Shown here: positions 9,426 to 9,712 of the stretch, piece by piece
Numbering within the stretch: position 1 is the first letter of the stretch
Layout: every line of letters starts with the position of its first letter
Origin: a virus
Taxonomy: Duplodnaviria; Heunggongvirae; Uroviricota; Caudoviricetes
Reading direction: 5' to 3' (one strand)
Virus record (IMG/VR): IMGVR_UViG_2713896798_000009
DNA: 14,996 bases
Position numbers and translations under genes: made by a program
The notes under the pieces: model-generated
What the model saw: the letters and a program-made list of their open reading frames with translations, nothing else
Databases searched by the model: none
Told to the model about the DNA's origin: nothing

Positions 9426-9475
9426 AGGCTTTATCTCACAGCAGTAAATTAAAATTTTTGCGTTTTAACCCTTCA

Positions 9476-9699
9476 CCTGTTCACCTTTTGATATTTTATC
9501 TTTTAATTCATAATGTTAAGGGGTGAACAGTTTCACAAAAACTATTCACCAACTGTTCACCACTGTTCACCCTTGAAGCTCAATAAACAATCAAAAAGGT
9601 GAACAGTGAATAGTTTGGTGAACAGTTCATAAATAACTGTTCACCCTATAATATACTGATATAAAAGATATTTATGACAGGGTGAACAGTGGTGAACAG
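9476..9699. repeat. iteron array and AT-rich segments: candidate replication origin immediately 3' of the primase-helicase gene
   Basis: At least 9 exact copies of GGTGAACAG / CTGTTCACC in both orientations (9477-9485, 9522-9530, 9553-9561, 9563-9571, 9598-9606, 9617-9625, 9637-9645, 9681-9689, 9691-9699) plus degenerate copies, interleaved with AT-rich stretches. Confidence 0.7.
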
Positions 9700-9712
9700 T
9701 TATTCCATAAGT

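Follow-up and report, generated by a model that had tools for sequence, protein, structure and literature searches.

A single two-module iteron array 3′ of an SF3 helicase gene as the probable replication origin of a capsid-forming PICI-type satellite in Escherichia coli

Replication origins of phage-inducible chromosomal islands (PICIs) contain two sets of iterons placed around AT-rich DNA, immediately 3′ of the rep gene (PMC6092414). A rep–ori replicon of the island EcCICFT073 gave plasmid maintenance, which was abolished by deletion of either ori or rep (PMC6092414). In the pathogenicity islands of Staphylococcus aureus (SaPIs), the C-terminal winged helix of Rep binds 6–12 iterons located 3′ of rep with an AT-rich centre, and two hexamers are proposed to self-load, one on either side (PMC9371898). 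In phage P4, crr is located 3′ of the alpha gene and ori is 4.5 kb distant (X51522). The subject here is a 287-bp intergenic region (positions 9426–9712) of the caudoviricete record IMGVR_UViG_2713896798_000009, the whole 14,996-bp stretch of which was analyzed and is referred to as the window. This region is very probably the only origin of vegetative replication in a ~15-kb PICI-type satellite that forms capsids and is inserted in E. coli tqsA, and it belongs to a kind of origin that is already known (PICI/P4-type iteron origin).

The region occupies the whole gap from the helicase stop codon (9713–9715, − strand) to the ATG of the next gene (9423–9425, − strand), which is an 81-amino-acid open reading frame (ORF; 9180–9425, − strand). 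Its G+C content is 32.8% versus 50.4% for the window. Exact copies of the 9-mer GGTGAACAG number nine on the two strands of the window, and all lie inside 9477–9699, five on the + strand (9522, 9598, 9617, 9681, and 9691) and four on the − strand (9477, 9553, 9563, and 9637); an earlier interpretation of this DNA (the sequence-only reading) had counted at least nine copies in both orientations, and that count holds. The expected number is 0.11 per window for uniform composition and 0.0009 per 287-bp region for its own base composition. When one mismatch is allowed, 13 matches are found versus 2.96 ± 1.58 in shuffled sequences, and none of 200 shuffles reached 13. The ninth base is variable in relatives (GGTGAACAc), which leaves the 8-mer GGTGAACA as the conserved unit. 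Two further 1-mismatch iterons, at 10984–10992 (+, AGTGAACAG) and 11015–11023 (−, GGTGAACTG), lie inverted and ~30 bp apart within the helicase coding sequence, and could be either a chance occurrence or a weak internal binding site.

The array comprises 12 sites: the nine exact copies, one copy with a single mismatch (9542–9550, −), and two that are degenerate (8-mers starting at 9470 − and 9605 +). The 8-mer starts in the distal half are −9470, −9478, +9522, −9543, −9554, and −9564, and those in the helicase-proximal half are +9598, +9605, +9617, −9638, +9681, and +9691 (for − strand copies the 9-mer start is the 8-mer start minus 1, e.g., 9477 versus 9478). Successive spacings are 8/44/21/11/10 bp in the distal half, 34 bp between the halves, and 7/12/21/43/10 bp in the proximal half; most correspond to whole helical turns (10–11, 21, and 43–44 bp). 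The tandem copies with a 10-bp period that had been noticed at 9681–9699 (+, GGTGAACAGT GGTGAACAG) are seen at 9681 and 9691, 14 bp from the helicase stop codon, and have a counterpart pair on the other strand (9553–9571, −; starts 9553 and 9563), which forms a triplet with the 1-mismatch copy at 9542–9550.

These sites make up two inverted modules of ~100 bp, each with six sites arranged as a pair, a 35-bp AT-rich spacer, one inverted copy, and a triplet. The helicase-proximal module (9598–9699, −) has the order ‘<< > <<<’ when read away from the gene, and the distal module (9470–9571, +) is its mirror, ‘>>> < >>’; a central A-rich spacer (9572–9597) separates them, with the dyad centre at ~9583.5. 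The AT-rich spacers of the proximal (9646–9680) and distal (9486–9521) modules are candidate unwinding elements on the basis of duplex stability: in nearest-neighbour energy calculations over all 30-mers of the window, 9646–9676 is the least stable and 9490–9520 the fourth least stable, which bears out the earlier statement that the iterons flank AT-rich stretches. Opposed iteron sets around AT-rich DNA, as in PICI-type origins, are therefore present in the region. Neither DnaA boxes nor GATC sites occur in 9400–9750, which fits a DnaA-independent origin, and the IHF-like matches in this interval all have one mismatch and are uninformative.

Judged by sequence, the closest relative of this DNA element is phage P4 ori/crr, a relationship that was missing from the sequence-only reading. 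In the P4 record X51522, the sequence TGTTCACC, of which the 8-mer GGTGAACA is the reverse complement, bears the annotation ‘ori type 1 repeat’ at both ori and crr, so that the two elements have the same 8-bp iteron. A full-text literature search for TGTTCACC returned primer-sequence noise only. Positions 9504–9576 match P4 ori with 78.7% identity in blastn, and one MAFFT alignment brings both halves of the array, P4 ori, and both 120-bp crr repeats together as one type of module. The distal-module spacing of 8/44/21/11/10 resembles that of P4 ori (10/43/22/11/10). As the sites of the distal half are ordered and spaced like those of P4 ori in reverse complement, and the proximal half mirrors the distal one, the region can be described as two inverted P4-ori-like modules. 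The array is located 3′ of the helicase gene, as crr is located 3′ of alpha. The two systems differ in that a single cluster is present here, whereas P4 has a 6-site ori and crr 4–4.8 kb apart; in that the modules are inverted here, whereas crr consists of two direct 120-bp repeats; and in that the window represents a capsid-forming island rather than a P2-dependent P4-like satellite. A BLASTP comparison of P4 ORF106 (Cnr), a copy-number regulator whose gene adjoins alpha, with the two small ORFs that lie upstream of the helicase showed no similarity.

The region is also homologous to the intergenic array located where the validated EcCICFT073 origin mapped. The order DUF4222 protein–helicase–288-bp gap–small ORF–SSB–PerC of EcCICFT073 is found here, and a layout of 11–12 sites is common to both. 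The GGTAGA[C/T]A iterons of EcCICFT073 have offsets of 15, 24, 72, 92, 103, 112 | 145, 156, 176, 224, and 233 from the stop codon, and the corresponding offsets in the window are 15, 25, 68, 89, 101, 108 | 142, 152, 163, 184, 228, and 236. The helicase has 48% identity to EcCICFT073 Pri-Rep from end to end, the N-terminal domain included. Differences are the iteron sequence (GGTAGA[C/T]A versus GGTGAACA), the C-terminal domain, and the full capsid and packaging module of the window island. In addition, PICI Pri-Rep is described as unlike P4 alpha (PMC6092414), whereas the variant in the window shares the P4 iteron and 50% identity.

The likeness to SaPIs lies in an SF3 helicase with a C-terminal winged helix and in iterons 3′ of rep that are placed in opposed orientations about AT-rich DNA, and the self-loading mechanism is presumed to be alike. 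The sequence relationship is distant, however; SaPI iterons are 5–6 bp long with other sequences, and SaPIs have a separate or fused primase, whereas none is evident here. At the dyad-symmetric core origins bound by SV40 large T antigen (LTag) and papillomavirus E1, inverted initiator sites beside AT-rich or easily melted DNA nucleate two opposed SF3 hexamers. This likeness is functional only: the viruses are eukaryotic, their origin-binding domains and site sequences are unrelated, and their sites are far fewer.

The initiator is a 605-amino-acid protein (9713–11530, −) with D5_N, SF3 helicase (DUF5906), and Pox_D5 C-terminal domains in Pfam; residues are numbered here on the 610-amino-acid mechanical ORF (9713–11545). 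Residues 150–600 have 50% identity to residues 320–771 of P4 alpha. The helicase core matches SaPI5 PriRep5 (PDB 7OLA; E = 2.5e-10) and, weakly, Pfam PPV_E1_C. The C-terminal DNA-binding domain (residues 502–598; 9752–10042, −) is homologous to PDB 1KA8 (E = 1.5e-24), the solved C-terminal domain of P4 alpha, which has been assigned as a winged helix (PMC2777425). Within it, the segment MKRKTKHGLR (residues 575–584; 9794–9823, −) tracks iteron class across relatives, and general winged-helix topology suggests that it is the recognition helix or wing. The protein therefore combines a helicase with a C-terminal winged helix whose iteron specificity is suggested by the covariation described below. 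The N-terminal region differs from P4 alpha in that the P4-type Zn-finger/Toprim primase domain (alpha residues 1–319) is absent; a short Toprim-like alpha/beta domain without a Zn finger (11135–11485, −) is found instead, with FAGSDA and YQAG at the catalytic E and DxD positions. This fold lacks the catalytic acidic residues, which makes the label ‘primase’ doubtful, and the domain is probably not an active primase. The description of the array as immediately 3′ of a primase-helicase gene is thus correct as to position and as to the helicase, an SF3 enzyme, but doubtful as to the primase. No other primase was recognized in the island.

The same array is found in a broad set of relatives. In the closest relative, the complete 16.5-kb ‘induced prophage’ vB_KppS-Ant (helicase 74% identical), 11 copies are present, all of them directly behind the helicase gene and in this layout. 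A further 80 genome loci (L005–L084) were taken from one-genome-per-species contigs of Escherichia, Klebsiella, Kluyvera, Pectobacterium, Serratia, Yersinia, Erwinia, Xenorhabdus, Photorhabdus, and other genera (helicase 59–86% identical). In nearly all 80, the iterons rank as the most enriched 8-mers within the 450 bp that lie 3′ of the gene, whereas the remainder of the locus is essentially free of them. The position directly 3′ of the initiator gene is shared by the 80 genome loci and by 79 of the 80 viral contigs. When the window, vB_KppS-Ant, and P4 are added to the genome loci, the resulting 83 loci fall into four iteron classes: GGTGAAnA (65 loci), GGTAGAnA (6), GGTGGAnA (9), and GGCGGAnA (3). 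The layout ‘<< > <<< | >>> < >>’ is constant across iteron classes and genera, with conserved offsets from the stop codon of ~15, 25, 68, 89, 100, 108 | 140, 152, 163, 184, 228, and 236. In effect, all twelve sites switch sequence jointly with their positions unmoved. In 15 arrays of class A, the class of GGTGAACA, iteron columns are more conserved than spacers (0.89 versus 0.70; Mann–Whitney p = 3e-11).

Iteron class goes with the C-terminal domain of the initiator, not with the helicase core. Compared with the window protein, the protein of locus L008 is 97% identical in the core and 71% identical in the C-terminal domain, and its iteron is GGTAGACA (class B); P4 alpha is just 62% identical in the core, yet GGTGAACA is kept (class A). 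Residues 575–584 contain K-R-K-T-K-x-G in class A, mostly K-Q-C-T-R/K-G in class B, R-K-K-S-T-K-G in class C, and K-A-E-S-K-K-K in class D. Mutual information with class, uncorrected for phylogeny, is 0.37–0.40 bits per column at residues 570–609 versus 0.06–0.13 in the core.

Three N-terminal types occur on the cassette of helicase, winged helix, and 3′ array: a P4-type primase (48 loci), a short Toprim-like domain as in the window (8), and other or unknown domains (24). The presence of three unrelated domains on one cassette indicates that the N-terminus is exchanged as a module. Proteins of the P4-primase type from Xenorhabdus and Photorhabdus are likewise accompanied by the inverted two-module array, which suggests the single array as the general state, with the split in P4 as derived.

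More distant or irregular cases were also seen. In Pasteurella phage Pmp7 (helicase 34% identical), the short gap that precedes int contains only a few copies of GTGAAnA, which is uninformative. In the 43-kb Serratia phage Scapp (L004, 4022–4330), a gene for an alpha-like primase-helicase (38% identical) is followed by a hairpin with a T-run, terminator-like by eye. Beyond it, the unrelated repeat GAAAAGTGCAA occurs nine or more times, with copies in either orientation. This array is probably the Scapp origin; the portion of the Scapp record examined has no origin feature there. In L019 (Pectobacterium brasiliense), the C-terminal DNA-binding domain is frameshifted or truncated, and seven exact GGTGAACA copies and nine GGTGAAnA sites are retained. 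This locus, and the single island without iterons among the 80 viral contigs, are possibly decaying or recombinant replicons.

The claim that the region is an iteron-type origin like those of phage-inducible islands is thereby upheld by the P4-identical iteron, the 1KA8-type domain, the EcCICFT073-like layout, the covariation between iterons and C-terminal domain, the higher conservation of iterons than of spacers, and AT-rich spacers that are computed to be the easiest DNA to melt. We infer from these features that the island replicates autonomously. Iteron binding, the loading of a double hexamer, the site of melting, bidirectionality, and the source of primers can be inferred in outline. 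After induction and excision of the island, the helicase would bind the iterons via its C-terminal P4-alpha-type winged helix, and sites one, two, and four helical turns apart would share one face of the DNA. One hexamer per module would be loaded, in opposite orientations; the AT-rich spacers would melt, and the two SF3 helicases would unwind outwards, resulting in bidirectional theta replication. The SSB encoded by the island would coat the unwound DNA, and primers would probably come from a host or helper primase.

Several points weigh against this interpretation. The mutual information that links iteron class to the C-terminal domain is uncorrected for phylogeny, and class B has two different versions of residues 575–584, which excludes a simple one-to-one code. 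The structure prediction for the C-terminal domain has a low confidence (predicted local distance difference test, pLDDT, 42) and was not used for placing segment 575–584. As the protein is without the primase domain by which P4 alpha initiates alone, a separate priming function is required, probably that of a host or helper primase. Moreover, as the gap has neither a terminator nor a sigma-70 promoter, transcription probably crosses the origin, and the array may have an additional regulatory role.

On a related view, the array would serve chiefly as a transcriptional operator or roadblock by which the winged helix of the helicase controls read-through from the early genes into the SSB, PerC, and capsid genes, or as a handcuffing or incompatibility site for copy-number control. 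Plasmid iteron arrays often serve as control elements too. A promoter and terminator scan of 9100–10000 detected no terminator and no sigma-70 consensus promoter in the gap, so that co-transcription of the downstream genes across the array is probable, in line with the unidirectional transcription reported for Gram-negative PICIs (PMC6092414). Such a role is compatible with origin function rather than opposed to it, and it would leave the low stability of the AT spacers, the homology to P4 ori, and the phenotype of the EcCICFT073 ori deletion unexplained; as the main function of the array it is very unlikely. In the same stretch, a motif beyond the last iteron and before the next gene (9426–9470), CTTAAACGCATATTTTTTAATTTTATAG in most relatives and GGTTAAAACGCAAAAATTTTAATTTACTG here, might be a weak promoter or a further protein site; the consensus promoter scan gave no call.

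A role as a P4-crr-like cis-acting enhancer, which would bind the initiator while another part of the island holds a separate ori from which DNA synthesis starts, is even less probable. The position of the array immediately 3′ of an alpha homologue is that of P4 crr, and 46 of 50 elements of the P4 clade (alpha 84–99% identical to P4; elements with enough flanking sequence) have two clusters, i.e., a direct-repeat crr at this position and a separate 6-site ori 4.0–4.8 kb upstream. No second iteron cluster was found, however, in the window, in the 29-kb source locus (the island and its 7-kb flanks), in vB_KppS-Ant, or in 80 related islands, the viral contigs L088–L167 (988 kb in total; protein 79–100% identical), 79 of which have 7–11 exact iterons directly 3′ of the gene and one of which has none. 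In the source locus, 10 of the 12 GGTGAA[C/T]A sites fall in one 300-bp stretch, and all other 300-bp stretches have at most one. The order and spacing of sites within a module are those of P4 ori rather than of a crr repeat, and the homologous EcCICFT073 region together with rep sufficed for plasmid maintenance (PMC6092414). The occurrence of two clusters in 46 of 50 P4-clade elements and in none of the 80 islands marks the bipartite layout as a trait of the P4 clade; by the same comparison, the island family of the window is predicted to have a single dyad-symmetric origin.

The ~230-nt palindrome formed by the two modules could in principle act as an RNA hairpin for processing or attenuation in a read-through transcript, or as a DNA cruciform, rather than as a set of protein sites. 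The − strand RNA of 9460–9712 folds at −101.2 kcal/mol versus −50.7 ± 4.6 kcal/mol for shuffled sequences (z = −11.1), Rfam hairpin models match weakly over 9469–9697, and there is no terminator between the region and the upstream gene. With permissive filters, the Rfam matches are sub-threshold eukaryotic miRNA hairpins only (best score 43.5 versus a 249-bit threshold), to which the palindrome gives rise. Complementarity between the arms is 0.88 in iterons versus 0.65 in spacers, and for the AT spacers it is 0.612 with the partner arm of the same genome, 0.616 with that of another genome, and 0.58 with shuffled sequence, although these spacers are conserved relative to their own orthologues (0.70–0.73). 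Spacers without an excess of own-genome complementarity give no sign of selection for pairing, and a hairpin leaves the tandem direct copies in each arm and the covariation with the DNA-binding domain unexplained. A hairpin or cruciform as the selected feature, the least likely of the alternatives, is therefore rejected on the spacer covariation tests despite the strong minimum-free-energy z-score, and the hairpin is a by-product of inverted binding sites.

Taking the region as an origin, a tentative wider reading is that a single dyad array 3′ of the helicase gene could be the general, and possibly ancestral, origin of the P4-alpha/PICI helicase family. The long-puzzling division of P4 into ori and crr would then be derived, with crr as a remnant of the original origin and ori as a displaced single module, and the at least four iteron classes, each with its own C-terminal variant, would be replication-specificity (incompatibility) groups among co-resident satellites. 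As the island and P4 share the exact iteron, P4 alpha and the island helicase might cross-activate, or interfere, at each other’s origins. Iteron class would offer a practical predictor of which satellites coexist or cross-replicate, and the fixed scaffold with switching iterons represents a natural experiment in winged-helix–DNA specificity. P4 and PICIs are treated as distinct satellite families, but a PICI replicon can evidently be closely related to that of P4, with an identical iteron. The absence of the primase domain raises the question of where a self-loading SF3 helicase obtains its primers in E. coli.

The setting in a phage-inducible island, as had been proposed, is supported by gene content, by which the window is a capsid-forming PICI-type island. 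All genes are on the − strand. An integrase, a short helix-turn-helix regulator, an Icd-like protein, a DUF4222 protein, and the helicase precede the iteron gap, which is followed by two small ORFs, SSB, a PerC-family regulator, the major capsid protein, a prohead protease, and a portal protein, and then by head-closure and adaptor proteins, an HNH endonuclease, TerS, and TerL. Integrase, regulators, packaging genes, and an attachment site are all present, and the gene content is as in capsid-forming PICIs (bioRxiv 10.1101/2022.09.08.507074). Iterons are not mentioned in that preprint, and no word in it beginning with ‘ori’ means a replication origin; this origin is undescribed in the capsid-forming PICI papers examined. 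The segment 9100–10100 is 100% identical to E. coli FORC_028, in which the ~15-kb island interrupts tqsA, a gene that is among the attachment sites listed for PICIs (PMC6092414). At least 80% of this 1-kb segment is found in 530 of 5,426 complete E. coli genomes, so that a cis-acting origin and its cognate initiator domain are located, at the level of prediction, for a very common E. coli satellite.

Three observations concern neighbouring genes and islands. The gene for the PerC-family transcriptional activator (8175–8567, −; Pfam E = 3.6e-43) lies a short way downstream of the origin and SSB, and the LEE pathogenicity island is a target of some of the PerC activators found in PICIs (PMC6092414). 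The 340-amino-acid mechanical ORF at 12146–13168 (−) is probably not a single gene: RefSeq has just a 67-amino-acid Icd-like cell-division inhibitor at its downstream end (~12146–12349), and residues 258–339 are the sole part that matches a PHROG family (‘transcriptional repressor’). Finally, EcCI042 of E. coli 042 (L087), a classical 11-kb PICI with the same tqsA attachment site and the same flanking genes (DUF4222, SSB, and PerC), has a wholly different replicon at 5725–7325, in which a RepA-family helicase is followed by AAGTGAG repeats; whole rep–ori cassettes thus appear to be swapped among islands of a common backbone.
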